From positions 448,001 through 512,000 of the forward strand of contig CAWGMA010000004.1 of NCBI GenBank assembly GCA_963823555.1: a stretch of DNA of 64,000 nucleotides. Reading direction: 5' to 3'. The notes under the pieces are model-generated. The model was not told the DNA's origin, searched no databases, and was given only the letters and a program-made list of their open reading frames with translations. A program made the translations under genes and the position numbers. The DNA is from Candidatus Eiseniibacteriota bacterium (lineage in GTDB: Bacteria; Eisenbacteria; RBG-16-71-46; CAVPCR01). This document shows positions 6,729 to 31,045 of this stretch, one piece after another (the stretch's first letter is position 1; the number at the start of each line of letters is the position of its first letter).

Positions 6729-6730
6729 GC

Positions 6731-8092
6731 GTGGCCCACTGGAATGTGCTGATCGTCGACGACGATGAGGAGATGTGCCGCCTCCTGAGTGAGCACCTGG
6801 CCCGAGAGAAGCTGTTTACGTCCTATGTGCTCAGCGCGGAGGAGGCTCTGGATCACGTCGGGCGCTTACCTTGCGATCTCGTGGTGACCGACCTCCGTCT
6901 CGGCGAGACCACCATCACTGATCTGCTGCCCGATTTCCTCCGCCTCCGGCCCGGGCTGCCGATCATCATCATCACCGCCTTCGGAACTCTCGATTCGGCG
7001 GTCCAGGCGATGAAACTCGGAGCCTTCGACTACATCACCAAACCGTTCCCCCTGGCCGCGCTGTCCCTGGCTGTGCGGCGCGCACTCGAGCACCGGGAGC
7101 TCGAACACGAAGTGCGCGAGCTGCGCCGCAAACTGGGTGAGGAGGGTAGCGCCGCCTTGCGGCTGGTCGGGCGGAGTCCAGCCATGGCCAGGCTCAGGGA
7201 CCTCGTGGGTCGTGTGGCTCAGGCCAACGCCAATGTGCTCATCACCGGGGAGAGCGGGGTGGGGAAGGAAGTGGTGGCGCGGAACCTGCATGCGGCGAGC
7301 TCGCGCGCCGAGGCGCCCTTCGTCCCCATCAACTGCGCGGCGATTCCGGAGACCCTGCTCGAGAGCGAGCTCTTTGGTCACACCCGCGGTGCCTTCACCG
7401 GGGCGTCGGCTGAACGCCGGGGGCTCTTTGCCGAGGCCAGCGGTGGCACGCTGTTCCTCGATGAGGTGGCGGAGATGGCGCCGGCTCTGCAGGCCAAGCT
7501 CTTGCGCGTGTTGCAGGATGGAGAGGTGCGCCCGCTGGGGCAATCCCGGGCGATGCGGGTCGATGTCCGCGTGATATCAGCGACCAACCGCAACCCCGAA
7601 GAGGAAATGGCCGAGGGTCGCCTGCGCGAGGATCTCTTCTACCGTCTGAGCGTGCTGCACATCGAGATCCCGCCCCTCAGGGATCGACGGGAGGACATCC
7701 TGCTCCTGGCCGAGGATCTGCTCGCCAAGGCGGCAAACGAGCAAGGGACGTCCCCGCCGCGGCTCGATGCTGAAGTGCGACGCATTCTTCTCGATTACCC
7801 CTGGCCCGGGAACGTCCGCGAGCTCGACAACGTGATGCGCCACGCGCTGGCGCTGGCCAATGGCACGGAGGTCGGCCTCGAGGTATTGCCTCCTCGATTG
7901 CTCGGGCATGATCGCGAGCGGTCACTGCTCGGGCGAGCGGCTGGATCACAGCTCACGCTCGCCGAGCTCGAACGCCTCTACATTCTGGAGGTGCTGAAGA
8001 CGGAGGGCGGCAGCCGCACCCGGGCTGCCACCGTTCTCGGGCTGGACCGGAAGACGCTCTACCGGAAGCTCAAGTCCTACGGACAGGACTGA
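6731..8092 (+). CDS. Sigma54-dependent NtrC/AtoC-family response regulator
   Basis: Receiver (VDDD...TD...TK), Walker A GESGVGKE, GAFTGA, LFLDE, WPGNVREL, C-terminal Fis-type HTH. Confidence 0.97.
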   Translation: MAHWNVLIVDDDEEMCRLLSEHLAREKLFTSYVLSAEEALDHVGRLPCDLVVTDLRLGETTITDLLPDFLRLRPGLPIIIITAFGTLDSAVQAMKLGAFDYITKPFPLAALSLAVRRALEHRELEHEVRELRRKLGEEGSAALRLVGRSPAMARLRDLVGRVAQANANVLITGESGVGKEVVARNLHAASSRAEAPFVPINCAAIPETLLESELFGHTRGAFTGASAERRGLFAEASGGTLFLDEVAEMAPALQAKLLRVLQDGEVRPLGQSRAMRVDVRVISATNRNPEEEMAEGRLREDLFYRLSVLHIEIPPLRDRREDILLLAEDLLAKAANEQGTSPPRLDAEVRRILLDYPWPGNVRELDNVMRHALALANGTEVGLEVLPPRLLGHDRERSLLGRAAGSQLTLAELERLYILEVLKTEGGSRTRAATVLGLDRKTLYRKLKSYGQD

Positions 8093-15696: not shown

Positions 15697-15800
15697 GGAT
15701 CGATCATACCAGGCGGCGTTCGCCGGGCGCGCAGCGGCGCCTCCGCCTCCCCGGCCGTGCCCTTTCCCTGGGTGCCCCGGCCCCAGGGTCCGGAAGCCCT

Positions 15801-15829
15801 TTGCATGTCGCGGCCCCGCCCTTTAGACT
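15801..15829 (+). promoter_or_regulatory. Putative sigma70 promoter of pckA
   Basis: TTGCAT-17 nt-TAGACT. Confidence 0.55.
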
Positions 15830-15989
15830 GTCACGCCAGGTGCGGGTCCACCAGAGCGAGTAGCCTGTCTGGCCGACTAGGCCTTCCCGCCCGCCTGCAA
15901 TTTGTTGCCGCGCGATAGCCATTCGATCCCTGATCTTATCCGGCGGTCGTTGCTGCCCGAGCGATCGCCGCGGCGGAGGAGCCACCTGC

Positions 15990-17555
15990 ATGCCGAGCGT
16001 CAAGTCCTTGCCGGTCGCCCCCATGCGCACCCACTGGAATCCATCTCCGGATGAGCTGCGCGAGTTCGCAGTCGAGATGCCCAACGCGCGCTGGACTCTC
16101 TTCAACAACCTGAATGTGCAGACCAGGGTGGTCGCCCGCTCCAAGGCGTCCACTTATGTCGTGACCGATCGCCCGGAGGAGCACTCCGATCAGACCGTCA
16201 GCCGTGGCGAGGGCGAGCGCATGGCCCACATCCAGGACGAGTACATCCGCCACCAGGAGATGCTCGTCATCGACGGCTACATCGGCAATCAGCCCGAGTT
16301 CCGCACTCCGGCCCGTCTCATCATCGAGAAAGCCAACGCCAACGTCGCGGCGATGCAGCAGATCCTCTACTACCCGATCGCGCCCGCCGAGCGTGAGAGC
16401 TTCGTCCCCCAGCTGACCGTGATCTATACCCCCAATCTCGCCGCACCAGGGTATCCCTCCGATCGCCTGATCGCGGTCGATCTCGGCCACATGAGGACCC
16501 GCATCTTCAACTCCGACTACTTCGGGGAGTCGAAGAAGGGTGGGCTCCGCATGTGGAACAAGCTCATCTACGATCGGGGCGGGCTGGCCCTGCATGCCGG
16601 TTGCAAGATCATCCCCGCCGGCGGCCGGGAGCGAGTGGCGCTCATCGTCGGTCTCTCCGGCACCGGCAAGACCACCACCACCTTCACGCGCCAGAACGGA
16701 TCATCCCCGGTCCAGGATGATTTCGTGGCCCTCATGGCCGACGGTTCGGTCGTGGCCACCGAGAACGGATGCTTCGCCAAGACCTTCGGCCTGGACCCCG
16801 AGTTCGAGCCCACCATCTATGGAGCCGTGACCCAGCCCGAAGCCTACCTCGAGAATGTGTCGCAGGATGCGCAGGGGAAGGTCGATTTCTTCGATACCAG
16901 CTACACGCAGAACGGTCGTTCGGTATTCCCGATGGCCAAGGTGGAGGGCGCCGCCGGTGGCCAGCGGATCGGAAGCGCCGACATCCTTCTCATCCTGAAC
17001 CGCAACGAGAACGTGATCCCCGCTGTGGCCCGGCTCGATCGCGAGCATGCCGCTGCCTACTTCATGCTCGGGGAAACCAAGGGGACCTCGGCGGGCGGCG
17101 CCGAGGAGGCGGGCAAGTCGCTTCGGGTGCCCGGTACCAATCCCTTCTTTCCCCTTCTCCACGCCCAGCAGGGGAATCGCATGTTCGACCTCCTGCAGAA
17201 GCATCCGCTCGAGGTCTATCTCATGAACACGGGACGGGTCGGAGGGCCGGACGCCGACGATCGCTCCAGGAAGGTCAAGATCCCGCACTCGAGCGCCATC
17301 GTGAAAGCGATCGCCGAAGGCACCATCCAGTGGGAGCGCGATCCGGACTTCGGCTACGACGTGCCGAAGTCGGTGCCCGGGATCGCAAGCGAGGACGCCG
17401 ACATCCTCCAGCCCCGCAAGCTCTATGAGCGGCAGGGACGCGCGGACGAATACCGGCAGATCGTGAATCGCATGAAGGAAGAGCGGCTGGCCTACTTGAA
17501 GAAGTGGCCCGGTCTGCGTCCGGAGATCATCCAGGCGATTCAAACTCGCGACTGA
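15990..17555 (+). CDS. pckA: Phosphoenolpyruvate carboxykinase (ATP)
   Basis: YFGESKKG, LHAGC, P-loop GLSGTGKTT, QDD, ENGCFAKT, YLMNTG. Confidence 0.93.
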   Translation: MPSVKSLPVAPMRTHWNPSPDELREFAVEMPNARWTLFNNLNVQTRVVARSKASTYVVTDRPEEHSDQTVSRGEGERMAHIQDEYIRHQEMLVIDGYIGNQPEFRTPARLIIEKANANVAAMQQILYYPIAPAERESFVPQLTVIYTPNLAAPGYPSDRLIAVDLGHMRTRIFNSDYFGESKKGGLRMWNKLIYDRGGLALHAGCKIIPAGGRERVALIVGLSGTGKTTTTFTRQNGSSPVQDDFVALMADGSVVATENGCFAKTFGLDPEFEPTIYGAVTQPEAYLENVSQDAQGKVDFFDTSYTQNGRSVFPMAKVEGAAGGQRIGSADILLILNRNENVIPAVARLDREHAAAYFMLGETKGTSAGGAEEAGKSLRVPGTNPFFPLLHAQQGNRMFDLLQKHPLEVYLMNTGRVGGPDADDRSRKVKIPHSSAIVKAIAEGTIQWERDPDFGYDVPKSVPGIASEDADILQPRKLYERQGRADEYRQIVNRMKEERLAYLKKWPGLRPEIIQAIQTRD

Positions 17556-17592
17556 TCGCAAGGCGAGAGGCTCAGGGCCGGGGGGTAAGAGA

Positions 17593-17624
17593 AACGGGGT
17601 CTTCCGCCATGCGGAGACCCCGTT
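17593..17624. terminator. Hairpin between convergent genes, probable bidirectional terminator
   Basis: AACGGGGTCTTCCGC-CAT-GCGGAGACCCCGTT. Confidence 0.65.
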
Positions 17625-17667
17625 CGTCGTTCAAGGCCGCTCGGGGCTGTGCCCGAGCGCCCAGGGC

Positions 17668-18351
17668 CTAGTGAGTGTCGATCTTCACCTGCGAGTAGAA
17701 TTGCGTACCGAGGTTGCGCTCGTCATCGACCCCCAGCTCCATCGCCTTCTTGAAGTGATCAGCACCCATCTCGGGGTTTTCCATGGCGTACATGAAGGCC
17801 AGAGCGTAGTGAGCTTCCCCATAGTCGGGCTTGAGCTCGATGGCCTTCTTGTAGTTTGCGAGAGCGGCATCCTTGTTGAAGCCGACGTTGAACTCGGCAT
17901 ACGCCAGCCCGCGATAGGCTTCGGCGTAGTTCGGATCGAGGGCGATGGCCTTGTTGAACAGCTCCCGGGCCTGAACGTAGTCGCGCTTGCTCTGATCCGA
18001 GGTGAAGGTCAGGCGGAAACCCTGGTCATAGGCGGCCGCGGCCTCGGCTACCTGCGTCGCGGCGCGACCCCGCTCGAGCTCGGCGAGGCTACCGGAGCCG
18101 GTCTCCTTCATCGGCACCGTGCTCGGGTCGACCGGCTCGCCGCCGCCGATCGGGGGATGGCCCTCGGGGAGGGCGGCACTGCCGGGGGTGCCGCCGGCCT
18201 CGGATCCGGCAGGTGCCGATTCGACACGGCGACCCTCGTCACCGGACTTCTGGCAGGCGACCGGGCCCAGCGCAAGCACGACGCCAAGGGCGAGCAGGAA
18301 ACACGGAACGAGCAGCGGACGGGTCTGATTATGGAATGGATGGTGGTTCAT
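17668..18351 (-). CDS. TPR-repeat lipoprotein
   Basis: Start MNHHPF; hydrophobic signal ending GPVAC; LPEGHPPI motif; TPRs (AIALDPNYAEAY, AIELKPDYGEAHY). Confidence 0.85.
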   Translation of the reverse strand: MNHHPFHNQTRPLLVPCFLLALGVVLALGPVACQKSGDEGRRVESAPAGSEAGGTPGSAALPEGHPPIGGGEPVDPSTVPMKETGSGSLAELERGRAATQVAEAAAAYDQGFRLTFTSDQSKRDYVQARELFNKAIALDPNYAEAYRGLAYAEFNVGFNKDAALANYKKAIELKPDYGEAHYALAFMYAMENPEMGADHFKKAMELGVDDERNLGTQFYSQVKIDTH

Positions 18352-18424
18352 GCCGGGAAGATAGCAAATGAGAGCGATCCCGCAACAGGCAGTCTTGTCG
18401 ACCGTGGGGGCCGGCCCGGGGGGG

Positions 18425-18988
18425 CTAATCGGCGACGAGGAAGCAGATGCTCTGGCGGCCGCCGGCAGCGCCCGAGCAGGTGAGCCGGCCGGCACCGGGA
18501 TCCGCCCGGCCGTCAACCAGGATGTCCAGCCGGGTGGCCGCCCGCCTGGGGATGGCCGACAGCACGACGTACGAGTTGGAGCCACGGGTGTCGGCGCGGC
18601 CGTCGCCATCGAGATCGAACTGGCGGGTCGAATGGTGGAGATGGATGAGGCCTCCCCATGCGTTGTGAGCGGCGAGTTCCTCGAGATACGGTCCTTTCCA
18701 TGTCGTGCTCATGAGCCCGCTCTTGAGCGGCGGGATGTGCGTCAAGTTCTGCAGGTCGGGGTGGACAGTCGGATCGTAATCCGCGAAGTGGACGGGATAG
18801 CGGCCGGTATCGCGCTGGAACTCGGCGACCGCGCCCTCGATCCGCCGGAGGAAGCGGAGCGTGCGCTTGATTCGCAGGTGTTCGACACCAAGGGAGCAGA
18901 GCGAAAGGAACATCCACCCGACCACGGCCATCACCGCCAGGGACAGGACGATTTCGTTGCGTGATAGGTGACGATGGGCAAGGCTCAT
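18425..18988 (-). CDS. GspG/pseudopilin-like protein
   Basis: N-terminal TM, FQRDTGRYP, WKGPYL, NAWGG resemble the GspG domain; prepilin cleavage site degenerate. Confidence 0.65.
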   Translation of the reverse strand: MSLAHRHLSRNEIVLSLAVMAVVGWMFLSLCSLGVEHLRIKRTLRFLRRIEGAVAEFQRDTGRYPVHFADYDPTVHPDLQNLTHIPPLKSGLMSTTWKGPYLEELAAHNAWGGLIHLHHSTRQFDLDGDGRADTRGSNSYVVLSAIPRRAATRLDILVDGRADPGAGRLTCSGAAGGRQSICFLVAD

Positions 18989-19142
18989 GATCGGGGCGTC
19001 CCGCTGCGGGCCGGTGGACTCGGTTCCTCCTCAAGGATCGGCCAGGGGAGGCCCGGGCTTGATGGGTCCGCGACCGGCGATCAACAGGCGGCCCCCGCGA
19101 TGGATTTGACAGGGTCGGAGCTCGGGTGCGACGATCCGCCGG

Positions 19143-20246
19143 ATGCGCCGTTCTCCCGCCTTCGACCCACCCGAATATGTGAGCTGGCAAGCAGACCCCG
19201 AGGTGATGGCCGAGTATCGCCGTCAGCTCGCGGCCGATCCCGAGCGCGAGGCCGTCATCGCCGCACTCGGGCACGATGATCTGCTGGGGCTCTATCGCGG
19301 TCTCGTCCGCAATCGCCTGCACGACGTCATGCTGAAGCGCTGGGTCATGCAGGGGATCACGCCCAAGGCCTGGCTGGGCACCGGCGAGGAGGCCGTGACC
19401 ATCGGTGCCGTTCACGCCCTGCGCCCAGGCGATGTGGTCGGTCCGATGATCCGCAATGCGGGTGCTTGTCATGAGATGGGCATTCCGCTGTCCACGATGT
19501 TCCGCGCCTACCTCGGCACGGGAGACACGCATCTGCGCGGGCGGGATCTCCATCTCGGCGACATGAGGCATGGGGTCATGGCGCCCACCAGCATGGTCGC
19601 CTCGCTGGTTCCCGTCGCCGCCGGGGCCGCCCTGGCCATGAAACAGCAGGGGGGAGAGCGAATCGCCCTGACGTGGGTCGGGGACGGCTCGGTGCGGACC
19701 GGGGAGTTTCACGAGGGTGCCTCGTTCGCCGCGGCGCTGCGTGTGCCGCTCATCGTCATCATGCAGAATAACCAGGTGGCACTCGGCACGCCCTATCACA
19801 TGCACTCCCGGGTCGCGTTGACGCAGACCGCGAGCGCCTATGGCGGACCGTTTCTGAGCGCGGCTGGCAACAACGTTCTCGATGTGTATGCCGCGACGAC
19901 TCTCCTCGCTCGCGCCTGCCGCGCCGGGGAAGGTCCTGCGTTCCTGGTCGCCGAAACGGGTCGCATGGGTGGGCATGCGACCCACGACGAGGCCGAGGGG
20001 CGGCGCATCCTTCCTCCCGAGCACTTCGCCTACTGGGGACGGCGGGATCCGGTCGGGCTGTTCGAGACCTACCTTCTCGATGCCCTCGGTGCGGGGGGCG
20101 CCGATCTCCTGGCTCGGGCCGAAACCGAGGTCAACGCCGAGATCGAGGCCGCTGCTGCCGCCGCTCTCAGGAGTCGTAGCGAGGCGCCGCCGGATGTCGC
20201 GGGCGTGGCCGACGGTGTCATGGCTCCCGAATCGGATGCCCGGTGA
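19143..20246 (+). CDS. TPP-dependent 2-oxoacid dehydrogenase E1 alpha subunit
   Basis: GEEA, TPP motif GDGS...QNN, RMGGHATHD, RDP; TTGACA at 19106 upstream. Confidence 0.9.
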   Translation: MRRSPAFDPPEYVSWQADPEVMAEYRRQLAADPEREAVIAALGHDDLLGLYRGLVRNRLHDVMLKRWVMQGITPKAWLGTGEEAVTIGAVHALRPGDVVGPMIRNAGACHEMGIPLSTMFRAYLGTGDTHLRGRDLHLGDMRHGVMAPTSMVASLVPVAAGAALAMKQQGGERIALTWVGDGSVRTGEFHEGASFAAALRVPLIVIMQNNQVALGTPYHMHSRVALTQTASAYGGPFLSAAGNNVLDVYAATTLLARACRAGEGPAFLVAETGRMGGHATHDEAEGRRILPPEHFAYWGRRDPVGLFETYLLDALGAGGADLLARAETEVNAEIEAAAAAALRSRSEAPPDVAGVADGVMAPESDAR

Positions 20247-20334
20247 GGTGGCGCCGTCACTTCAACCGACACGATACTGGTAGAATGCCCCGGGTTGAGG
20301 CGGCCGCGCGAACCGGGCCAGGATCCCCATTGGA

Positions 20335-21363
20335 GTGAGCATGCCGTACACCCTTGGTGAGCAGACCGATTCCAGAGTGGCCGAGCTCATCGCAGACCAG
20401 GGCGGGTCCCCGAATGCCGATCTCATTCAGGAGATCCTGATCACCGGTCTCAAGCTGATTGGCGACAACCCGGATCGCGGCGACTTGAAGATCCTCAACA
20501 CGGCGCTCAAGGAGCTGAGGCATGCGCTCCGTGTCTTTGCCCCGTATCGCGATGCGCGCAAGGTGACCATCTTTGGTTCCGCGCGGTCCGGGCCGGATAC
20601 GCCCGCCTACCAAATGGCGCTCGAGTTCGCCGAGAAGATCGTCCAGCGTGGCTTCATGACCATCACCGGTGCGGGACCGGGCATCATGGAGGCCGGCAAT
20701 GCGGGTGCTGGACGCGAGAACACGTTTGGACTCGGTATCCGCCTCCCCTTCGAGCAATCAGTGAACGATTGGATCGCTGGTGATGCCAAGGTCGTCAACT
20801 TCAAGTACTTCTTCACCCGCAAGCTCATCTTCGTCAAGGAGACGGACGCCCTCGTGCTCTTCCCTGGCGGGTTCGGTACCATGGACGAGGCGTTCGAAGT
20901 GCTGACGCTGGTGCAGACGGGAAAGTCGAAGCTCATGCCGGTCTTCTGTCTCGATGTCCCGGGCGGGACCTACTGGCCGGCATGGCGGGCTTTCCTTCAC
21001 GACCATCTCTGTGGCAGCGGCAAGATCTCGCCTGCCGATCTCGATCTCTTCGAGCTCGTCGACTCGGTTGATGATGCTTGCGATCGCATCAGCCGCTTCT
21101 ACCGCAACTACCACTCCAGCCGCTTCGTCGGGCCGCGGCTCGTGATTCGCGTGCAGAGTTTCCCCTCGAAGGAGCTGATCGCGGACTTGAACCGCGGCTT
21201 TGCCGATATCCTGGCCGAGGGCGGCTTCCAGGTGGCCAAGGCTCTGCCCGAGGAGCAGCGCAACGAGCCCGAGCTCAACGACCTGCCACGAATCATCTGC
21301 ATGTTCAACCGCCATGGCTACGGGCGATTGCGAGCGGTCATCGACCGAATCAACATGGATTGA
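20335..21363 (+). CDS. LOG family (TIGR00730) nucleotide monophosphate nucleosidase, long form
   Basis: VTIFGSAR, TGAGPGIMEAGN, FKYFFTRK, PGGFGTMDE. Confidence 0.93.
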   Translation: MSMPYTLGEQTDSRVAELIADQGGSPNADLIQEILITGLKLIGDNPDRGDLKILNTALKELRHALRVFAPYRDARKVTIFGSARSGPDTPAYQMALEFAEKIVQRGFMTITGAGPGIMEAGNAGAGRENTFGLGIRLPFEQSVNDWIAGDAKVVNFKYFFTRKLIFVKETDALVLFPGGFGTMDEAFEVLTLVQTGKSKLMPVFCLDVPGGTYWPAWRAFLHDHLCGSGKISPADLDLFELVDSVDDACDRISRFYRNYHSSRFVGPRLVIRVQSFPSKELIADLNRGFADILAEGGFQVAKALPEEQRNEPELNDLPRIICMFNRHGYGRLRAVIDRINMD

Positions 21364-21370
21364 GTGAGCC

Positions 21371-22675
21371 GTGAAGAAGAACTACATCCTCGATACCAAC
21401 GTGCTCCTGCACGATCCCGGTGCGGCGCTGAGCTTCGATGATAACAGCGTCATCATTCCGATTCAGGTCGTCGAGGAGATCGACCATTTCAAGAAGGAAA
21501 TGAGCGAGCGAGGGCGGAACGCGCGCCAGATATCCCACTTCCTTGACAGCCTCCGTCACCAGGGGCACCTGGCTGAGGGCGTCCCCTTGCCCAATGGCGG
21601 GACCTTGCGCGTCGTGGTGAGCGGCGGCGAGGACGACGTTCCCGGTATCGGGCTCGACGGTACGGTCGACAATCTGATCCTCGCGCTCGGACTCCATCTC
21701 AAGCGACGGGAGCCGATGATGCCGCTCGTCCTCGTCACCAAGGATACCAACCTGCGAATCAAGGCCGACGCCATGGGTCTCATGGCCGAAGACTTCGAAG
21801 CGGGGCGAGTGCAGATCACGGAGCTCGACCGCGGTGACACCGAGGTCACGGTGGGACCCGAATTCATCGCTCGATTCAAGGAGGCCGGTACATCGCCGTT
21901 GCCGGCCGGGACCTTCTATCCCAACACCTATGTCATCTTGCGTGCCGGAGATGGGCCGCGATCGGTACTGGCGCGCGTCAATCCTGCCGCCGAAGGACTG
22001 GAGACGCTCCGCGTGCCCGGTGAACCGGTGTGGGGTATCTCTCCCCGGAACAAGGAACAGCACTACGCGCTCGATGCGCTCCTCGATGACCGCATCCAAC
22101 TGGTCACCGTGATGGGGAAGGCAGGAACGGGCAAGACGTTGCTCGCCCTGGCAGCGGGTCTGGCCAAGGTGGAGACCGAGTCCCGTTATCGGCGGCTTCT
22201 CATCAGTCGGCCGCTGTTCCCGGTCGGCAAGGACGTGGGCTATCTTCCCGGCGGCCTCGAGGCCAAGCTGGCGCCGTGGATGCAGCCGATCCAGGACAAC
22301 ATGACGCTGCTCCTCGAGCGCGTCGGTGTGCGTGACGTGGGGCATGAGCTCGATCGTTTGCTCGGTACCGTGGTCAGCGTGGAGCCGATCACCTACATTC
22401 GCGGGCGGAGCATACCCAACCAGTATATTATTGTGGACGAGGCGCAGAATCTGACGCCACTCGAGGTCAAGACGATCATCACGCGCGTCGGGGAGGACAC
22501 CAAGATCGTCCTGACCGGTGATGTCTTCCAGATCGACAATCCCTACGTCGATGAGTCCTCGAACGGCTTCAACTATGTCGTGCACAAGTTCCGGGATCAG
22601 GGAATCGCGGCCCACGTGGTCTTGCGGCGTGGTGAGCGTTCGGGGCTGGCGGAGCTGGCGGCCAACCTCCTCTGA
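21371..22675 (+). CDS. PhoH2-type PIN-domain plus PhoH ATPase protein
   Basis: PIN motifs YILDTNVLLHDP and TKDTNLRIKA; Walker A GKAGTGKT; YIRGRS, DEAQN, TGDVFQID. Confidence 0.95.
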   Translation: MKKNYILDTNVLLHDPGAALSFDDNSVIIPIQVVEEIDHFKKEMSERGRNARQISHFLDSLRHQGHLAEGVPLPNGGTLRVVVSGGEDDVPGIGLDGTVDNLILALGLHLKRREPMMPLVLVTKDTNLRIKADAMGLMAEDFEAGRVQITELDRGDTEVTVGPEFIARFKEAGTSPLPAGTFYPNTYVILRAGDGPRSVLARVNPAAEGLETLRVPGEPVWGISPRNKEQHYALDALLDDRIQLVTVMGKAGTGKTLLALAAGLAKVETESRYRRLLISRPLFPVGKDVGYLPGGLEAKLAPWMQPIQDNMTLLLERVGVRDVGHELDRLLGTVVSVEPITYIRGRSIPNQYIIVDEAQNLTPLEVKTIITRVGEDTKIVLTGDVFQIDNPYVDESSNGFNYVVHKFRDQGIAAHVVLRRGERSGLAELAANLL

Positions 22676-22775
22676 TCTCGATGCGGACCCGGCGCCAAGC
22701 GCCGAACTTAACAGGCGAATGGTAGATTCCTCTCGGCCGCCGGGTCGACCTCGCTACGCACCGCGTTTCCGGGCG

Positions 22776-22849
22776 TTATCCACAGCTTCTGTGCCGGGTT
22801 GAGCCCGGATTGCGCATGCAAGAGAGATTCCATCCACTGTTTATCCACC
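22776..22849 (+). promoter_or_regulatory. DnaA-box-like sites
   Basis: Perfect TTATCCACA at 22776-22784; TTATCCACC (1 mismatch) at 22841-22849. Confidence 0.45.
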
Positions 22850-22897
22850 GCTGGCTTCGCGACGGATGGTTTCACCGCATGTACATGCGCTTTTTCG

Positions 22898-22926
22898 TTG
22901 ACCTGACGCGAGTCCGGCGGTATTTT
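22898..22926 (+). promoter_or_regulatory. Sigma70 promoter for the large candidate ncRNA
   Basis: TTGACC (22898-22903), 17 nt, TATTTT (22921-22926); predicted +1 near G22933, the first base of the closing stem. Confidence 0.75.
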
Positions 22927-22932
22927 ACGCAC

Positions 22933-23796
22933 GGGTCGAGTGAGACCCGAGTTCGCGCGCCGACCCTCCCTCGGGAGGAGGCGCAAAACCCCAGGAGGGG
23001 CGGCGGTCTCGCGAGAGATCGCCAACCTCGGTGCCACGAAGACTCCGAGGGGCAGGGTAGGACCGCTTCGGCGAACCCACCTGAAGCCCGGGGGAGGATG
23101 ATCCGCAAGGGTCGCGGCGCCCGAGGCCATCAACCCCTGAAGGGGAGGAAACCCAGGGAAGCCAGTGTGCTGGCTCATGGTCTAACCACTGTGAGCAGGC
23201 TGCCACCCTCCGGGGGGATCAAGACCCGGGAGCCGAGCTTCGGCCAACGGCAGGCGGGTAGAGCAATCGCCGACGAGGCGAAGGCGATCTCCGGCAGGGA
23301 AGGCTTCGAAGGGCGAAAAACCTGCGAGCGCCACCGGGATGAAACAAGCCCGGACGGGTCGGGAGGAGTAAGCCGTCAGGAGGGTGAGAAACCCTGAAGG
23401 CGGAACGTTCGGGCGAGGCAAACCCGGACCGTGGACTCCCGATACCTCGAGCGCTGAGAGGGGAGAAACCTCAGGGGAGCAGTCGATCACTGGAGACAGG
23501 GTCGACGGCCCAACCTGGTGAACACTCTGAAGGGAAGCGAAAGCTCAAGAGAGGCTAGCTCACCGGATTCAATCGCGGACCGGTTGGCGCCGAGGGCGAG
23601 GAAGCCCCGTCGAGTGCGGTTCTACAAGGAGCCGTTCCCGGGGTGCCCGGTAACCAGTAGCCGGGCTACGAACCCTCGTTAGACTCTGAAGGGCAACGTA
23701 ATCCCATGAGAGGAGGTCCGTCGGTGGTGACACCGGCGGGCGGCCAGGGTGAGGCCCAAGGCTCCGGAGGGGAAAGCGAACCGACTCACTCGGCCC
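22933..23796 (+). ncRNA. Candidate large (864 nt) highly structured modular ncRNA, family unassigned
   Basis: 5' GGGTCGAGTGAG pairs with 3' CTCACTCGGCCC (12 bp, one G-U); TTCGC pairs with GCGAA; U-tract follows; many GNRA/UUCG hairpins; repeated module; only low-complexity shadow ORFs. Confidence 0.8.
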
Positions 23797-23862
23797 GTTT
23801 TCTTTTCTGCCGTTGGCTCGAATTCCGCCTGATCCTCACCTTGCGTCACCCCTCGGTTCTCC

Positions 23863-26298
23863 ATGACTGTGCAACTCCAGAAACACCTGTTGATCGCACG
23901 GCATCCCGGGTGGGGGGCACGGGTCATCTTGACCGCCATCGTCCTGGTTGAGGGCTTGCTCCTGGGCGGGAGCCCGGCCTGGGCCCGGAGCGGTGATCTC
24001 TTCGATGACCGGGTGGTGGGGATCGTGGAGGCGGTCATGGACCCCGCCGATCTGGCTCGCCTCCTGGATCCGGACAACGCCGAGAGCAACGAGTACCTGC
24101 CGGCACGGGTGCGGGTGCGGCATGGCGATCTCGATGAGCGCTTCCCGGGAGCCGGTCTCCGCCTGCGAGGCAACTACAGCCGGTATGCCCACAAGAAGGG
24201 CTTCAAGATCGCCCTCCATGCCTTCGAGCCGGGAGCCGAGATCGACGGAATCTCGAAGCTCAACCTGGTCGGCGAACACAATGACCCATGCATCGCGCGC
24301 GAGAAGATGGCGTTCGATGCACTGGCGGCGATCGGTGTTCCAGCCTCGAGAGTGAGTCACGTCCGCTTCTATCTGAACGGCGAATACCGGGGTCTCTACC
24401 TCCATGTCGAGGAAGTGGACGAAGCGTTCCTCGAGCGTCGTTTTGGATCCCCCTCCGGAAACCTCTACAAATGCCAGTATGTCAACCGCAATGCCAGTGC
24501 CGATCTCGTCTACCGGCAGGCGGAGGACTACGAGACACTCGGCGACGCCGACAAGCCGGTCTACGAGCTCACGTCCGACCGCCGCTCCGATTCATTCACG
24601 GACCTCGCGGAGCTCATCGCGGTCATCAATCGCACCCCGGACGAGCACTTCGTCCGCGAACTCGAGCGCGTGTTCGACGTCGAGGCCTTCCTGGCCACCA
24701 TGGCCTTCGACGCCCTGAGCGGCAGCTGGGACGGCTACTGGGTTGGCGCCAACAATTACTTCCTGTATCACGACCCCTTGCTCGGAAGGTTCCGCTTCAT
24801 CCCGCGCGACCTCGACATGACCTTCGGTCTCAACACGATCAGCAGCATCGACTACACGGAAGTCAACATCTACCGACTCGGTCGCTTCGATAGTCAGCGG
24901 CCGCTCGTCTGGCGGATGCTCGAGGAGGATCACTACCGGAACCTGTTCACCTTCTACGTGGAGAAGCTTCTCGCCGGCCCCCTGGATCCCCAGGTCTTCG
25001 CCGACCGGGCCGAGGAGTTGCGCACGCTGATTCGACCGGCGGCTCTCGATGACACGTATCGTACCCGCGACTTTCCCGAGCTCATCGACTACGAGGCCTT
25101 TGATCGCGCCTATGATGAGCGACTGGGCGGGCATGTGCATCATGGGCTCAAACCGTTCATGGCGGATCGGGCGGCGAGCGCGCGCCTGCAGATCGACTAC
25201 GAATCGGCCCCGCCGGCGATCTGGGGCGTGGCACCGCAGTGGGGACTTCTCGCTCCGGCGGCTCCCATGACCTTCCGGGCGGGGGCTTTCGATCCCGGAG
25301 GCCTGGATCGGGTCGAGTTCCATCTCGACGTGGGCCAGGGGTTTTCATCCTGGCCCATGCGTGACGACGGGATCAGTGGTGATGGTGCGGCGGGAGACGG
25401 GATCTGGGGCGCTGAAGTTCCAGGAGCCCCGGCCGGGGCTCGCGTCCGCTTCTACATTGCGGCTCGCGATCGATCCGGGTACCTGACGCGCTTTCCCGCG
25501 CGCGGGGGGGAGGATGCCATCGAGCTCGAGGTCCTCCGCGACGGCCCCATCATTCTCAACGAGCTCATGGCTCGGAACACGACGACGATCGGAGATGAAT
25601 GGGGAGAGTTCGAGGACTGGATCGAGCTCTGGAATCGCGGCCCGGCGGCGGTGGACCTGGGCGACTATCGGTTGACCGACAACCCCGCCGAACGCGATGT
25701 CTTCGCGCTCCCCGCGCTCCGGGTGGAACCCGGCGAGCGGGTGCTGGTCTGGGCGGATGGCGACGACGATCAGGGAGCCCACCACGCGCCGTTTCAGCTC
25801 GATGCGGACGGCGAGTGGATCGGTCTATTCAAGACAGCCGGTGGCGGTCGCTTCGATGCCATCGATGCCGTCCGGTTCGGCTCGCAGGCCGCCGATGAGA
25901 GCCATGGGCGAGTGGCGGATGGCGACCCGACCTGGGCGACCGTGCATCCGACGCCCGGGGCGCCCAACTCGCCGCAGGCCGTGGAACCCGGGTCGATGCC
26001 AGGGGATGGCGTCCCAGCGCCGCAGCTTGAGTTGCACTGGGTGCGGCCCAACCCGGTCCGCGACGAGTCGCTGATCCGCTTCGATCTCCCGGCCGGAGAG
26101 AGCGGCACGATCGATATCGTCGATGTCCACGGCCGGATCCGCCGGCAGCTTGTCGTGGACCCGGTGGCTGCGCGTTCGCAGGCGGTGTGGTGGAACGGAC
26201 GCGACGGAGATGGGCGGCGCGTGCCCTCGGGTATCTATTTCCTCCGCCTGACCGCTGCGGGCGAGTCCCGGACGACGACGCTCGTGGTGATCCGGTAG
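23863..26298 (+). CDS. CotH kinase-family protein with lamin-tail domain and C-terminal FlgD-Ig domain
   Basis: LRLRGNYSR, YRGLYLHVEEVD, WDGY...NNYFLY, IPRDLDMTFG; LTD ILNELMA...DWIELWN; C-terminal PNP...WNGRD...SGIYF. Confidence 0.9.
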   Translation: MTVQLQKHLLIARHPGWGARVILTAIVLVEGLLLGGSPAWARSGDLFDDRVVGIVEAVMDPADLARLLDPDNAESNEYLPARVRVRHGDLDERFPGAGLRLRGNYSRYAHKKGFKIALHAFEPGAEIDGISKLNLVGEHNDPCIAREKMAFDALAAIGVPASRVSHVRFYLNGEYRGLYLHVEEVDEAFLERRFGSPSGNLYKCQYVNRNASADLVYRQAEDYETLGDADKPVYELTSDRRSDSFTDLAELIAVINRTPDEHFVRELERVFDVEAFLATMAFDALSGSWDGYWVGANNYFLYHDPLLGRFRFIPRDLDMTFGLNTISSIDYTEVNIYRLGRFDSQRPLVWRMLEEDHYRNLFTFYVEKLLAGPLDPQVFADRAEELRTLIRPAALDDTYRTRDFPELIDYEAFDRAYDERLGGHVHHGLKPFMADRAASARLQIDYESAPPAIWGVAPQWGLLAPAAPMTFRAGAFDPGGLDRVEFHLDVGQGFSSWPMRDDGISGDGAAGDGIWGAEVPGAPAGARVRFYIAARDRSGYLTRFPARGGEDAIELEVLRDGPIILNELMARNTTTIGDEWGEFEDWIELWNRGPAAVDLGDYRLTDNPAERDVFALPALRVEPGERVLVWADGDDDQGAHHAPFQLDADGEWIGLFKTAGGGRFDAIDAVRFGSQAADESHGRVADGDPTWATVHPTPGAPNSPQAVEPGSMPGDGVPAPQLELHWVRPNPVRDESLIRFDLPAGESGTIDIVDVHGRIRRQLVVDPVAARSQAVWWNGRDGDGRRVPSGIYFLRLTAAGESRTTTLVVIR

Positions 26299-26332
26299 CG
26301 CTCTGCCCCCGCTGCGCCGGCCGGGGTCTGGC

Positions 26333-27850
26333 TCAGAACCCGCCTGCGGTCCGCCGCTCCCCGTCGATGCGGGCGGCATGCACGCTCACCAGCTCGAGCG
26401 CACGGCGCACGTGGCGTTCCGTGGTCCGTATGTTGCCGATCGCCATCCGGAGCGTCGTGCGGCCGCGGAGCGCCGTATGCGAGAGCATGACTTCCCCGCT
26501 TGCGTTCACCGCATCGAGCGTGGCGGTGTTGAGCGCGTTGAGGTGTTCGCGCACGCGAGGATCGTCCTCACGACCGCGGAGATCTTCGGGCCGGGCACGG
26601 AAGCAGACCGTCGACAGCGGAGTGGGGGCCAGCCGTTCCAGATCCAGTGCGGCATCGATGATCGCAGCCGCCACCTGGGCTAGACGCAGGTGTTCGCGAA
26701 TGCGCGCCGTCAGCCCGTCCTGACCGAAGGCTCGCATGACCATCCACAGCTTGAGGGCGCGGAAACGCCGGCCGAGAGAGATGCCCCAGTCCATGAGGTT
26801 GGTGACGCCTGACTCGCTCGTGCGCAGGTACTCAGGGACGAGGCTCGTGGCCCCGGTCAGGATCGCCGGATGCCGGCAGTAGAGCGCCGAGCAATCGATG
26901 GGTGTGAAGAGCCACTTGTGTGGGTTCACGATCAGCGAATCGGCGCGCTCGCATCCGGCGAGGATATGGCGCATCTCGGGGACGATCGCCGCCGTCCCGC
27001 CGTAGGCGGCATCGACATGAAGCCAGAGTTTCTCACGGGCGCAGATGTCGGCGATCGCCGGCACCGGGTCGATGGAGGTGGTCGAGGTGGTGCCCACAGT
27101 GGCCACGACTGCGAACGGGCGCCGGCCCTGGGCGCGGTCGGTGGCGATCCGGCGATCGAGATCGGCGACGTCCATCCGGTAATCGCCGTCGACGGCGACC
27201 TTCGATACCTGGTCCAGACCGATGCCAAGGACGATGGCGGCCTTGTCGATCGAGGAATGAGCCTCGCTCGAGGTGTAGAGCACGAGCGGCGCCTGATCGG
27301 GGCGCCCGAGAAGGCCGCGCGTGCGTACTGCGAGGTCGGGCACCGCCTCGCGCGCGGCGGTGAGCGCGGTCAGGCTCGATGCCGACGCTGTGTCCTGGAT
27401 GGCCCCGGCGAAATCGGGCGGCAGCCCGATGAGTTCACGGAGCCAGGCCAGCGTCACTTCCTCGAGCTCCGTACCCGCAGGTGATGTGCGCCATAGCATG
27501 GCGTTCACGTTGAGTGCGGCGGCGAGGAGCTCGCCGATGATTCCAGGCACCGATCCCGTGATACCGAAATAGGCCATGAATCCGGGGTGGTTCCAGTGCG
27601 TCACGGCGGGCACGACGAGTTGCTCGAAGTCGGCGAGGATCCTGGCGAGCGGTTCGCCGCGCCGGGGCGCGTGGGCAGGGAGGTGGGCGGAGAGTTCACC
27701 GGGTTGGACCTGCGCCAGCACCGGGAAGCGTTCGGGATGGTCGAGGAACCCGGCGATCCAGGCCAGTGCCTCTTCGCCGGCGGCCAGGAACTCCGCCGTC
27801 GGCAGATCGCCGGTCTCGATCTCCGCGCGTCCGCCGGCCTCGTCCATCAT
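26333..27850 (-). CDS. PLP-dependent group II (aromatic L-amino acid) decarboxylase
   Basis: THWNHPGFMAYF, AHSSIDKA, GTTSTTSIDP, HVDAAYGG, NPHKW, RRFRALKLW. Confidence 0.93.
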   Translation of the reverse strand: MMDEAGGRAEIETGDLPTAEFLAAGEEALAWIAGFLDHPERFPVLAQVQPGELSAHLPAHAPRRGEPLARILADFEQLVVPAVTHWNHPGFMAYFGITGSVPGIIGELLAAALNVNAMLWRTSPAGTELEEVTLAWLRELIGLPPDFAGAIQDTASASSLTALTAAREAVPDLAVRTRGLLGRPDQAPLVLYTSSEAHSSIDKAAIVLGIGLDQVSKVAVDGDYRMDVADLDRRIATDRAQGRRPFAVVATVGTTSTTSIDPVPAIADICAREKLWLHVDAAYGGTAAIVPEMRHILAGCERADSLIVNPHKWLFTPIDCSALYCRHPAILTGATSLVPEYLRTSESGVTNLMDWGISLGRRFRALKLWMVMRAFGQDGLTARIREHLRLAQVAAAIIDAALDLERLAPTPLSTVCFRARPEDLRGREDDPRVREHLNALNTATLDAVNASGEVMLSHTALRGRTTLRMAIGNIRTTERHVRRALELVSVHAARIDGERRTAGGF

Positions 27851-27860
27851 GCCGTCCCGT

Positions 27861-28907
27861 TCATTGGACTTCGATCCAGGTTGCTCCGCGCGGCACGACC
27901 TCGCCGATGCGGGATGCCCGGGGCGCACCGCGTGCGGCGAGTGCGGCCTGGAATGTGCCTTCGCCGGCGGGGGGGAGGCTCACCAGGAGTCCACCTGAGG
28001 TCTGAGGGTCGAAGAGCAGACGCTGGTCCGGAGCATCTCCCAGCTGCACATGAGGGGCCAGCGCCGCGGCGTTGTCCTTGAGGCCGCCAGGGAACACGCC
28101 CTCCCGGAAGAGCTCCAGGGCTCGCGGCAAGGTGGGGATCGCCTCCCAGCGCAGCCGGAAGGAGACGTCCGATGCCCGGGCCATGCTCACTGCGTGGCCG
28201 AGGAGCCCGAAGCCGGTGATGTCGGTGGCCGCATGCGCTCCGGCCTCGACCATGGCCGCCCCGGCGTCCCGATTGAGGGTGCGCATGGTGCGAATGAGCA
28301 CCCCAGTGGTTTCCGCGTCGAGGCGCTCGCGCTTGATCGCGGTGGAGAGGATGCCGGTCCCGAGCGGCTTGGTGAGCAGGAGCACGTCGCCGGGACGGGC
28401 TCCCCGGTTGCGCACGATGCGCTCCGGATGGATGCGGCCGGTGACGGCGAAACCGAACTTGAACTCGTTGTCCTTGACCGTGTGCCCGCCGAGGAGAGCC
28501 ACCCCTGCTGCCATGAGCACTTCCTGTGCGCCCAGCATGGTCTCGACCAGCACCTCGAGCGGCAGCCTGGTGTTGGGGAAGCAGACGACGGCGAGGGCCG
28601 TGGCCGGTTCTCCACCCATGGCATAGCAGTCGCTCAGGGCATTGGCCGCGGCCACGGCGCCGAAATCGCGCGGATCATCGACGATGGGGGTGAAGAAGTC
28701 GATGGTCTGGACAAGCGCCAGCTCGTCCGACACGCGGAACACCCCGGCATCGTCCCAGGTCTCGGTGCCCACCAGCACATCCGGATTGGGTGGGGGCGTC
28801 GGCATCCGGGTGAGGATACGGGCTAGATCCTCCAGCCCGAGCTTGGACGCTCAGCCGGCGCACTCGACCATGGCGGTCAGTTTCTGCTGGATATCGTCGC
28901 GGGTCAT
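27861..28907 (-). CDS. selD: Selenide, water dikinase with in-frame UGA (selenocysteine, codon 19)
   Basis: ATG 28907 reads MTRDDIQQKLTAMVECAG-UGA-ASKLG in frame into DDAGV, TIDFFTP, ANALSD, GGHT, DITGFGLLGH, DPQTSGGLL; the ORF track starts after the UGA. Confidence 0.93.
28819..28839 (-). promoter_or_regulatory. Putative bacterial SECIS stem-loop
   Basis: mRNA CGGGCUGG-AGGAU-CUAGCCCG begins 11 nt after the UGA at 28851-28853. Confidence 0.7.
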
Positions 28908-28986
28908 CGCCCGCAGAGCCTAGGCGGCCCGAGGCGGGGTCGCAAGAGGCATTACTGCCCCTCCCTCCGGGTCCGCCGCGCCAGCG

Positions 28987-29877
28987 CTACCGATACAGGT
29001 TCTTGATCGCGCCCCAGGTCGTCGGTCCGACCTGATCCCAGCAATCGGCAAACAGCGGCTGGGAGCAGGTCACGTCCTGGATGGTCTCGAGATCGACCCA
29101 CTCCTGGGTTTCGATGCTGAGCGGGAATCCGGCGGCGATGAGGGTGGATTCGGCCTCCCCGGGTGGTGCGAAACGGACCACGTGATACCACGCGCAGAGG
29201 TTGGCGGCACGCTCGTAGAACGCGCGGTCTTCCGGTGTCGGCGCCGCGGTCGCGAGGACCGCGAACAACCCGATGCGGTAACGCCAGGCGGATTCCAGGT
29301 CTCGCGCCGGTTCCCCCGTGTAGGCGGCGAGCCGCGCGTAGTAGAGAGGATCGCGGAGCAGCTCGATGTAGTCGCGCGCGTGGAGCGGAATCCACTCGAA
29401 CTCGTCACCGAAGGCGTAGGCCCCCGGCACCGGACCCTGGGACCCTTGCCCGTAAGTCTGCCAGTTCCATTGCCGGCAGGTCTCGATCGCGATGTGAACG
29501 CGATCCAGGCTCCACAGCACGTTCACCCAGCGGCGCTCCCCCTCCCGGTAGATGATCGCGCACGATCCGTTGCATTCGTCGCAGCCCTCCCAGCGCAGCG
29601 GGCACCAGTCCTGATTCGGATCGCCGCAGAAGACGCGGAGCAGCATGTTGGCCGGCACGTAGGCGAAGGGGAGGCACTGGTCGCAACCACCAAAGGGGTG
29701 GGGTCCGAAGGGCGGGCATTCCTCACGCTGGCGCACGAGGACCGAGTGTTCGTAGACCACGGTGCCCCAGGAATGGGCGATCCCGATGTCGGTGGCGAGC
29801 AGCAGTGTCGAGATGAGGACGGCGAGACAGGGGGGCCAGAGGGTGGAGAAAGCGGGCCGGGCGGCGAGCCGATGCAT
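28987..29877 (-). CDS. Secreted Cys-rich hypothetical protein with C-terminal TTWGAIKNLYR tail
   Basis: AAGGAGG RBS before ATG 29877; signal peptide; many Cys; terminal motif. Confidence 0.75.
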   Translation of the reverse strand: MHRLAARPAFSTLWPPCLAVLISTLLLATDIGIAHSWGTVVYEHSVLVRQREECPPFGPHPFGGCDQCLPFAYVPANMLLRVFCGDPNQDWCPLRWEGCDECNGSCAIIYREGERRWVNVLWSLDRVHIAIETCRQWNWQTYGQGSQGPVPGAYAFGDEFEWIPLHARDYIELLRDPLYYARLAAYTGEPARDLESAWRYRIGLFAVLATAAPTPEDRAFYERAANLCAWYHVVRFAPPGEAESTLIAAGFPLSIETQEWVDLETIQDVTCSQPLFADCWDQVGPTTWGAIKNLYR

Positions 29878-30005
29878 GGCGCCTCCTTGTCGCGGGTGAC
29901 TCGGGGTCGCCTTGTCTCTTACGAGCAACGTTGAGGTCGGTGGGGCGTCCTTTGCCCCCGCGTTGCTTGCAGGACTCGTGCCAGTCGCGGGAAACCCGTC
30001 TTCGA

Positions 30006-30950
30006 TCAGGGCTCGCTGGCTCCGGAGGGTTCGGTGTGGATGACGACGTCGGTCACCGTCGGGAACCGGGCGCGCAGCGCGGTCTCGACATCGTGGGTGA
30101 GCTCGTGCGCCGTGGCCACGGTCATCTCGGAATCGACGTGGATGTGCAGGTCGACGAGCACGTGGCCGCCGGCTACCCGGCTCCGCACCGCATGGCAGTC
30201 GACGACCCCGGGCAGGGAGAGCGCGACCTTGATCACTTCCTGCGGATCGAGCTCGGCCGCGTCGAGAAGGGAGTGGAAGGAGCGGCGGAAGATCTGCCAG
30301 GCCGTATGTCCGATGAGGACACAGACGACCCCGGCTGCGGCGAGGTCCGCGCTGGGATATCCCATCTTGACCCCGATGAATCCCGCCAGCACGCCCAGTG
30401 TGGCGAAGACATCGCCGAGCGTGTGACGCGAGTCGGCGATCAGGATCTCGCTTCCCAGCCGCTTCCCGACCCGGGCCTCGTAGGCGGTGACCGCCAGGTT
30501 GACGACCAGGGTACCCCCCGCGACCACGAATCCCAGGGCATCGATTCGTGGCTCCGAGAGACCACGTACCGCATCGATCATGTTGCGTGCCACCTCGATC
30601 AGACCGGCGGTGACCGAGATCCCGATGATGAGTGCGGCGATGCTCTCGACCTTGCGGTGGCCGTACGGATGCTCGGCATCGGCCGGGTGGCTGGCCACCC
30701 AGAGTGCCACCAGGCCGACCACGTTGGATCCGGAATCGAACAGGGAGTGGATGCCGTCGGCCCGGATCGCCACCGAACCGCTGATCATGCCGTAGACGAG
30801 CTTGGCGAGGGCGACGGCGAGATTGAGCCAGAGAATGATCCAGAGCACGCGACGCACGTCGCGATCAGTGCCGCGGGGTGAGGCCGGGTATCCGGGATGG
30901 CCGAGCGGGGAGGCCGATGCGGTCCCGGTGGCACTCGGCATGCGTTCCAT
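30006..30950 (-). CDS. Cation diffusion facilitator (FieF-like) transporter (alternative start 31049)
   Basis: ADGIHSLFD, HPYGHRKVE, ADSRHTLGD, DLHIHVD, AHE, IHTEP. Confidence 0.93.
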   Translation of the reverse strand: MERMPSATGTASASPLGHPGYPASPRGTDRDVRRVLWIILWLNLAVALAKLVYGMISGSVAIRADGIHSLFDSGSNVVGLVALWVASHPADAEHPYGHRKVESIAALIIGISVTAGLIEVARNMIDAVRGLSEPRIDALGFVVAGGTLVVNLAVTAYEARVGKRLGSEILIADSRHTLGDVFATLGVLAGFIGVKMGYPSADLAAAGVVCVLIGHTAWQIFRRSFHSLLDAAELDPQEVIKVALSLPGVVDCHAVRSRVAGGHVLVDLHIHVDSEMTVATAHELTHDVETALRARFPTVTDVVIHTEPSGASEP

Positions 30951-31045
30951 GGCCGCCCATCCTACGCCTGGTGAGCGTCGGGTGCCAGCCCGGGTGAGGG
31001 GTGGGCCGAGCTGGAGATCATCGAGCCGTTGCCTGGCATTCCCGC

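Follow-up and report, generated by a model that had tools for sequence, protein, structure and literature searches.

Among the large non-coding RNAs of bacteria, GOLLD is described as highly structured, in many cases longer than 800 nt and of unsettled function (10.1101/2024.12.08.627333), and ROOL as an RNA of 581 nt on average, with three pseudoknots, found in several phyla in a phage or tRNA context (PMC5737381). According to the 2017 survey, only rRNA, GOLLD and group II introns surpass ROOL in length and complexity (PMC5737381). GOLLD and ROOL are reported to form cages via A-minor and kissing contacts (10.1101/2024.12.08.627333, PMC12990946), and covarying kissing or pseudoknot contacts are described for both (10.1101/2024.12.08.627333). 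The raiA motif is described as an RNA of ~200 nt with pseudoknots (PMC12968392).

The window, i.e. the whole stretch of 64,000 nt of DNA that was analysed, contains an RNA gene that resembles GOLLD (RF02032) in being a large, highly structured bacterial non-coding RNA, and ROOL (RF03087) in being a large multi-junction RNA present in several phyla. It differs from GOLLD, which like ROOL often lies beside tRNA genes or in (pro)phages, by giving no match to the model and none in viral contigs or phages, by having a tRNA neighbour in 1 of 60 loci (no tRNA lies within the window) and by its construction from a single repeated module. It differs from ROOL by its length of 870-1250 nt, its nested fold, its chromosomal location and the lack of a model match, the latter in one search run without a positive control. 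The raiA motif and OLE are described as abundant RNAs of unsettled function that are encoded in chromosomes, act in trans and have protein partners or a closing helix (10.1101/2024.12.08.627333, PMC12968392); the present RNA can be likened to them, but neither gave an Rfam match, the phyla are others and raiA is much shorter.

No model of Rfam 15, those of GOLLD, ROOL, OLE and raiA included, matched the window at its gathering score, the best E-value in the RNA region being 0.76, and none matched the 9 + 14 homologue loci. MISL is likewise termed an Rfam family (10.1101/2024.02.24.581671). A full-text literature search, with supplements and subscription papers beyond its reach, found no published description of the RNA, and we consider it rather unlikely that one exists elsewhere outside Rfam. 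That the RNA stands in for a missing RNase P, tmRNA, SRP or 6S RNA was rejected, all four being found elsewhere in the home genome, as was a Y RNA/Ro60 pair, PF05731 (TROVE) not being found in the home genome (92.5% complete) in a search that detected its controls. The RNA is a new family, with its own architecture, among the broad group of large, ornate bacterial RNAs.

A stand-alone non-coding RNA gene

The RNA is present in a single copy in the home genome and lies in the 1.19-kb gap between phoH2 and a CotH/LTD gene starting at 23863. The features of the locus are the following.

21371..22675, + strand: phoH2 (PIN RNase and PhoH ATPase/helicase; Pfam PIN_4, PhoH), the upstream neighbour, given as context only
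22776..22784, + strand: perfect DnaA-type box; the 4.6-Mb genome has four such copies in all
22841..22849, + strand: DnaA-type box with one mismatch, from the sequence
22898..22926, + strand: sigma70-type promoter-like site, TTGACC-17-TATTTT, from the sequence pattern
22931..23803, + strand: large non-coding RNA of ~870 nt with four predicted arms round a central junction, from fold z, contigs of RNA runs and indels
22931..22944, + strand: 5' strand of the closing helix, pairing with 23785-23798 in free and constrained folds
23785..23807, + strand: 3' strand of the closing helix followed by a U-tract, the likely transcript end, from the sequence and folds

The promoter-like site is the sole match in 22600-24000 (shuffle mean 0.0), and 9 of 10 aligned loci have a TTGAC or TTGGC word at the corresponding position. 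The ends of the closing helix are too variable in distant homologues for a covariation test. With 20 shuffles for each strand, the fold z-score was -4.7 for the + strand vs -2.2 for the - strand. Comparison with eight homologues showed that 17 of 196 indels were a multiple of three, so that the reading frame is not preserved in the way expected of a protein-coding gene. Positions 22931-23803 of the + strand are a stand-alone non-coding RNA gene, with a promoter-like site, a closing helix and a U-tract.

The RNA was also found in sequencing runs. At least half of the sampled sequence words occurred in 19 of the 24 runs listed, and 20 runs were counted as containing the RNA (14 of them recorded as RNA; 12 studies), mostly from sediment, estuary and aquatic samples. 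The contigs from eight examined runs, one of which (X14) was flagged as probably DNA, show 0-1 differences from the home sequence and cover 22940-23795, with starts at 22940-22980 and ends at 23769-23795; these contigs are evidence of presence, not of strand, ends or level. Next to no contig cover was seen in 15000-31000 outside the RNA in the examined runs, but these bare flanks were not counted toward ends, strand or level, since the contigs give presence only and there was no DNA-run control. In a metagenome collection, at least 120 matches to the core pattern were obtained. Among the 80 records taken, 69 were shorter than 1400 nt, and in these the spacing between the core and either end hardly varied (median 694 and 450 nt), as would be expected of transcript assemblies.

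Nested arms built from one purine loop module

We investigated the claim of the initial annotation that a giant RNA is built from about nine copies of one hairpin module, with a purine-rich internal loop that persists while the stems vary. The six strings that it quoted occur exactly where it placed them. The half-motifs occur together 12 times in 22931-23803, a count reached by 1 of 21,192 overlapping 873-nt windows of the genome (mean 2.4). Against 1000 dinucleotide shuffles, the excess in the RNA alone was modest, with 7 occurrences vs 2.5 for one half-motif (15 shuffles as high) and 5 vs 1.8 for the other (22 as high); it became strong across 81 homologues, in which four of the top five enriched 6-mers belong to the halves once the search anchor is removed (per RNA, CTGAAG 2.68 vs 0.48 and CATGAG 1.91 vs 0.21). 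These 81 sequences are what remains of 95 homologue records made non-redundant at 85% identity.

The halves do not pair as local hairpins for the most part. RNAalifold applied to 80 core sequences paired a CCC-ANG strand with a GNA-GGG strand that lies 130 nt further downstream, and compensatory changes accompany this pairing. A pairing matrix of 9 ANG strands against 10 candidate GNA strands was then computed over 80 homologues (the aberrant L053 left out; each strand represented by 62-80 sequences, with positions shifted by at most 3 nt to fit the consensus better), and it gave one partner per strand: 22993-23139, 23047-23090, 23155-23308, 23229-23252, 23324-23456, 23378-23396, 23473-23766, 23529-23706 and 23547-23688. 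The paired fractions are 0.81-0.99 with z 11.5-18.6, except for the invariant search anchor (0.99, z 2.3). The z values ignore kinship, which the off-diagonal cells share, and these cells serve as the control. When the matrix was computed for 57 held-out genomic loci with unrefined positions, the top z again fell on the same partner in 9 of 9 rows, the weakest being module 1 (z 3.4). The nine pairings all nest into four arms, with A-rich linkers between them.

22989..23145, + strand: arm 1, module 1 (22989-23000 with 23134-23145; 0.96, z 11.5, held-out z 3.4) enclosing module 2 (23042-23053 with 23086-23097; 0.81, z 11.7, held-out z 6.1)
23151..23314, + strand: arm 2, module 3 (23151-23162 with 23303-23314; 0.95, z 13.5, held-out z 6.5) enclosing module 4 (23224-23235 with 23248-23259; 0.97, z 18.6, held-out z 8.5)
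23320..23462, + strand: the conserved core (arm 3), with module 5 (23320-23331 with 23451-23462; 0.98, z 16.2) enclosing module 6 (23374-23385 with 23391-23402; 0.99) and two hairpins
23469..23772, + strand: arm 4, module 7 (23469-23480 with 23761-23772; 0.92, z 13.2, held-out z 12.7), module 8 (23524-23535 with 23702-23713; 0.92, z 18.6, held-out z 12.5) and module 9 (23543-23554 with 23683-23694; 0.90, z 17.8, held-out z 15.6)
23605..23642, + strand: tenth module, degenerate in the home genome; 23609/23638 is G.G in 42 and A.A in 25 homologues, and the flanking pair 23607/23640 covaries

In arm 3, 98.2% of the cells are paired and 26 of 36 pairs show double changes, vs at most 51% for slid partners, the structure being derived from the same alignment. 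Partners that had been assigned by eye in arms 1 and 4 (Y1-X1, Y2-X2, Y5-X5, Y7-X7) were overturned by the matrix.

The count of about nine copies therefore agrees with the nine modules and the degenerate tenth, but their fold does not agree with the annotation. For five of the six quoted copies, the two halves pair with each other at 0.65-0.72 with z of at most 1.6, whereas with the alternative partners they reach 0.90-0.98 and z 13-19. The copy at 23373 is indeed a local hairpin, with a strand order opposite to that of the proposed consensus, and a second local copy, at 23224-23259, had been overlooked. The three looser copies are single strands, since 22968 contains the ANG strand at 22989 and 23043 and 23762 are GNA strands. 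The A-rich terminal loop of the proposed consensus corresponds to the linkers between the arms. In favour of the hairpins, they can pair in a 4x2 register (the 23303 copy at 0.78-1.0), a mutual information of 0.77 is seen for one column pair in 22 instances, and two hairpin pairings have z 2.8 and 3.4 in the held-out set. Nevertheless, descriptor searches gave 2-5 hairpin copies in the RNA, the loosest version being at chance (5 vs 3.6), and 204 pooled instances of hairpin type gave conflicting registers. Forcing the nested map costs 4.9 kcal/mol relative to the free fold, and forcing the hairpins 17.9. Local hairpins were rejected because each half has a better covarying partner and because forcing the hairpins costs more. 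In the unconstrained ensemble, three of the nine partner helices have a probability below 0.1 and the hairpin at 23684 reaches 0.49; single-sequence folding misleads on such an RNA, whose interchangeable halves mimic hairpins.

The halves are cross-compatible at 0.5-0.88 pairing, i.e. interchangeable enough for misfolding or strand swapping. The model of arm 3 also matches arm 1, arm 2 and the inner part of arm 4 (E 1e-4, 3.5e-3 and 0.23), which points to an internal duplication or a shared design, although the shared modules alone could suffice. In the metagenome record L103, the core hairpin occurs twice (425-451 and 644-670), suggesting an internal duplication of arm 3.

The module consists of 5'-AA..C-ANG-R-3' paired with 5'-Y-GNA-G-3', forming a 3x3 internal loop (A.A, N.N, G.G) in G-C rich stems. 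Over 665 pooled instances, the closing C-G pair is found in 640, A.A in 591 (G.G in 39) and the G.G opposition in 638; the second closing pair is A-U in 501 or G-C in 120, the base after the G is A in 377, G in 201, U in 66 and C in 21, and the middle position takes all four bases. Seven to nine of the nine modules are intact in 68 of 81 homologues. At 23547/23690, 23049/23090 and 23609/23638, A.A and G.G swap jointly (A.A/G.G counts of 46/30, 44/29 and 25/42, respectively). The AA step stands before the ANG strand in 65-97% of homologues, vs a background of 19%, and before the GNA strand in 19-99%. The loop is kept at the bases of arms, within arms and in both strand orders, and this constancy across settings and orders fits the recognition of a local shape.

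Several known motifs were considered for this loop. Kink-turns have a 3-nt bulge followed by tandem G.A and A.G pairs with fixed adenines; a kink-turn, which the initial annotation had proposed to look for, was excluded since the middle base varies and the loop is a symmetric 3x3. The GNRA tetraloop receptors of 11-nt or IC3 type are described as asymmetric loops between locally paired strands of 11 or 12 nt (PMC11571812, PMC2275092). The receptor proposal did not hold either, its 4x2 reading having arisen from the local hairpin pairing, whereas the covarying partners give a 3x3 loop, and a split T-loop reading fell together with the hairpin model. The loop can be compared with stem IIB of the HIV Rev response element, a purine-rich internal loop in which G.G and A.A are interchangeable and a protein helix lies in the widened groove, the interchange being described at the protein-binding site of a Rev-RRE aptamer (10.1101/098723). 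That element is viral, acts in cis and has another loop sequence, so it is a mechanistic analogue rather than a homologue, and here nine near-equal symmetric loops are present. Considering that A.A and G.G reverse pairs are described as rarely covarying in solved structures, where they do not generally do so (10.1101/098723), the geometry of the module is uncertain.

The initial annotation also suggested a principle like that of CsrB. CsrB and RsmZ do carry, like this RNA, many equal sites on one molecule. CsrA sponge RNAs contain many GGA motifs in hairpin loops, and the sites here are double-stranded 3x3 internal loops; none of the 31 GGA in the RNA falls wholly inside a hairpin loop of the model and one overlaps a tetraloop in the covariation-constrained fold, so that the literal CsrB reading is not sustained. 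The home genome, the only one in question for this result, encodes CsrA (PF02599 over cut-off). A scan of the genome for the loop gave 125 matches, and three control loops of a comparable kind gave 85, 102 and 146, several further control loops being ignored as inflated by self-matching; as the loop is not clearly over-represented in the rest of the genome, a CsrB-style mimic of mRNA sites is unsupported.

Each loop could instead be a pocket for a small molecule or a metal, the RNA buffering a nucleotide messenger or an ion. Nine equal pockets in a trans-acting RNA would suit such a buffer, and purine-purine loops are described as often ion-binding (10.1101/098723), but there is no riboswitch family match, and a two-way loop with a free middle position would probably be small for a specific pocket. 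We regard this explanation as quite improbable.

A further reading, to which we give a real but clearly lesser chance, is that the architecture is made of RNA only, the loop and the AA step being a tertiary building block of a pseudo-symmetric particle or of a multi-chain cage like those of GOLLD and ROOL; in a variant, the interchangeable halves could swap strands between chains. The RNA is in the size and abundance class of these cage formers, AA stands beside nearly every module, the arms resemble one another, their halves are cross-compatible, and hairpin caps which we take to be T-loop-like are conserved at 23340-23348 (UGAAAYA) and 23385-23391 (UGNGAAA), although one subgroup has a short stable loop instead of the first. 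However, unlike in GOLLD and ROOL, no covarying kissing-loop or pseudoknot helix was evident among the 110 strongest APC-corrected pairs, inspected by eye, a display in which invariant contacts are invisible. A candidate GGU/ACC contact, 23516-23518 with 23654-23656, is nearly invariant on both sides and thus beyond a covariation test; the hairpin loop 23650-23661 carries a nearly invariant AACC. Moreover, homologues range over ~0.9-1.25 kb with large insertions, which a closed cage may not tolerate.

Distribution and gene neighbourhood

BLASTN detected full-length homologues in 9 of 60 relatives, three short matches being discarded, and no other full-length homologue across the home phylum. 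The exact pattern retrieved 14 genome records, which by their titles are seven Ca. Eisenbacteria, one each from Myxococcales, Deltaproteobacteria, Acidobacteriota and Planctomycetota, and three other bacteria; the single Acidobacteriota match may be a transfer or a binning error. Genome scans with a covariance model of arm 3, each count including the centre genome, matched 8 of 151 genomes in the home phylum, 29 of 151 in the G207 phylum (up to five matches per genome), 22 of 151 in the G209 phylum, 1 of 151 in the G208 phylum and 1 of 11 in the G210 phylum. No match to the exact pattern was found in viral contigs, and none to the arm-3 model in phage and plasmid collections. In genome G043, the promoter, the DnaA-type boxes and both ends are kept, and nearly all of the RNA is deleted (~70 nt left) or misassembled (L240:1560-1850). 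As G043 has lost nearly all of it and only those eight home-phylum genomes were matched, the RNA is not universally needed.

Such patchiness, with up to five copies matched in one genome, would suit a selfish or mobile non-coding element with no host role, as would the changing neighbours and the IS66 copies on either side of one locus. Against this explanation, the RNA is single-copy at home and stable in position behind phoH2 across a class, it has a promoter-like site and a likely terminator of its own and no ORF, and the viral, phage and plasmid searches were negative; we give it only a slight chance. The IS66 locus belongs to genome G572, in which the two transposase genes score identically and enclose the RNA together with an amidase gene, much like a composite transposon (L246:1183-2655 and 5767-7239).

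Divergent forms of the RNA were also observed. In G017 (L030/L012) a 5'-shortened variant apparently lacks arm 1, and only ~360 nt separate its promoter-like word (TTGACC, L030:2638) from the core anchor. Degenerate or expanded copies (downstream of the L190 core; L053; L201) carry long runs of UUCG-capped hairpins after or before the module region.

Upstream of the RNA, DnaA-type boxes are enriched. Scanning was carried out with what we take to be the DnaA box consensus, and gave 36 boxes upstream in 24 of 59 loci across phyla, where block shuffles gave 2.1 ± 1.5; downstream of the RNA the 59 loci had 0; 200 permuted 9-mers gave at most 12 upstream matches. Two other perfect boxes of the home genome flank dnaA.

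The upstream neighbour phoH2 encodes a protein described as a fusion of a PIN RNase with an RNA helicase that is ATP-dependent (PMC7390352). The RNA could be its dedicated substrate, antitoxin or folding client, PhoH2 unwinding mispaired halves or the RNA restraining PhoH2. In support of this, besides the nature of the fusion, 10 of 14 genome loci, belonging to several lineages, have phoH2 immediately upstream in the same orientation, and in a query-based search of 80 selected genomes PhoH2 was present, within the home class, in 7 of 7 genomes of RNA-bearing families vs 0 of 14 of other families. However, in the examined flanks phoH2 was found at 8 of 69 loci, all in the home class, G208 or G210, and at none in the G207 and G209 phyla. 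In the G207 phylum, PhoH2 was found in 16 of 16 RNA-bearing and 13 of 15 RNA-lacking genomes; in the G209 phylum, the RNA-bearing genomes had it in 3 of 14 cases and the RNA-lacking ones in 4 of 14. G043 retains phoH2 despite the loss of the RNA, and the adjacency is explained by shared descent or co-transfer. PhoH2 as an obligate partner was therefore rejected, its adjacency being limited to certain lineages and its presence in the G207 and G209 phyla differing little between RNA-bearing and RNA-lacking genomes, and a client relation of the RNA to PhoH2 appears improbable to us.

No neighbouring gene is common to the loci across phyla, the neighbours elsewhere being unrelated cellular genes. 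Some local regularities were observed: one gene family lies downstream of the RNA in six loci of the G209 phylum (L172, L213, L214, L216-L218), an Amidase_2 gene neighbours it in two wider loci (L246, L247), and a LOG/SLOG-family gene precedes phoH2 in the window (20335-22675), in the same order as in L031. In one genome the phoH2 upstream of the RNA was matched in two pieces (G003:C1:2302475-2303854), possibly by a frameshift or an assembly error, and in G043 an extra ORF resembling a membrane protein lies between phoH2 and the promoter. Further along the window, an AIRS-family gene at 27861-28805 (- strand), presumably similar to the selenophosphate synthetase SelD, has no obvious N-terminus and perhaps an in-frame UGA upstream.

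A possible multivalent scaffold

The explanation that we tentatively place first, at somewhat less than even confidence, is that the ~870-nt RNA is a multivalent scaffold or sponge for an RNA-binding protein. The purine-purine oppositions would form non-canonical pairs that distort the helix and open its groove, as G.G and A.A do in the HIV Rev site, and one protein, or one dimer, may bind per module; with one protein per module, approximately nine would be held per transcript. DnaA bound upstream could tie the synthesis of the RNA to replication or to the growth state, and an RNA tied to growth in this manner might store or titrate the protein in slow-growing cells.

In favour of the scaffold or sponge, the two data sets agree on the best partner for 9 of 9 rows, the loop is kept in nine settings, and the interchange of G.G and A.A has a precedent at a protein site (10.1101/098723). 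Against it, no protein partner was found and no neighbour gene recurs across phyla, and packing of RNA against RNA would account equally well for the conserved AA steps and the T-loop-like hairpin loops.

Few classes of bacterial non-coding RNA exceed 600 nt, and large ones since solved are described as having given unexpected RNA-only cages (10.1101/2024.12.08.627333). The present family is as large or larger, is chromosomal and not phage-linked, occurs in several phyla and is found as transcript-sized contigs. With one module used nine times in a frame defined by covariation, it is a clean target for cryo-EM, for the pull-down of partners and for the definition of a new motif. On balance, we lean towards the view that it represents an undescribed class of kilobase-scale RNA with no known bacterial counterpart, among the largest in bacteria, occurring across several phyla and conspicuous in transcriptomes from sediment, in which a new 3x3 purine loop, repeated nine to ten times in duplicated arms, would make a DnaA-controlled multivalent scaffold, as a ribonucleoprotein or of RNA only.
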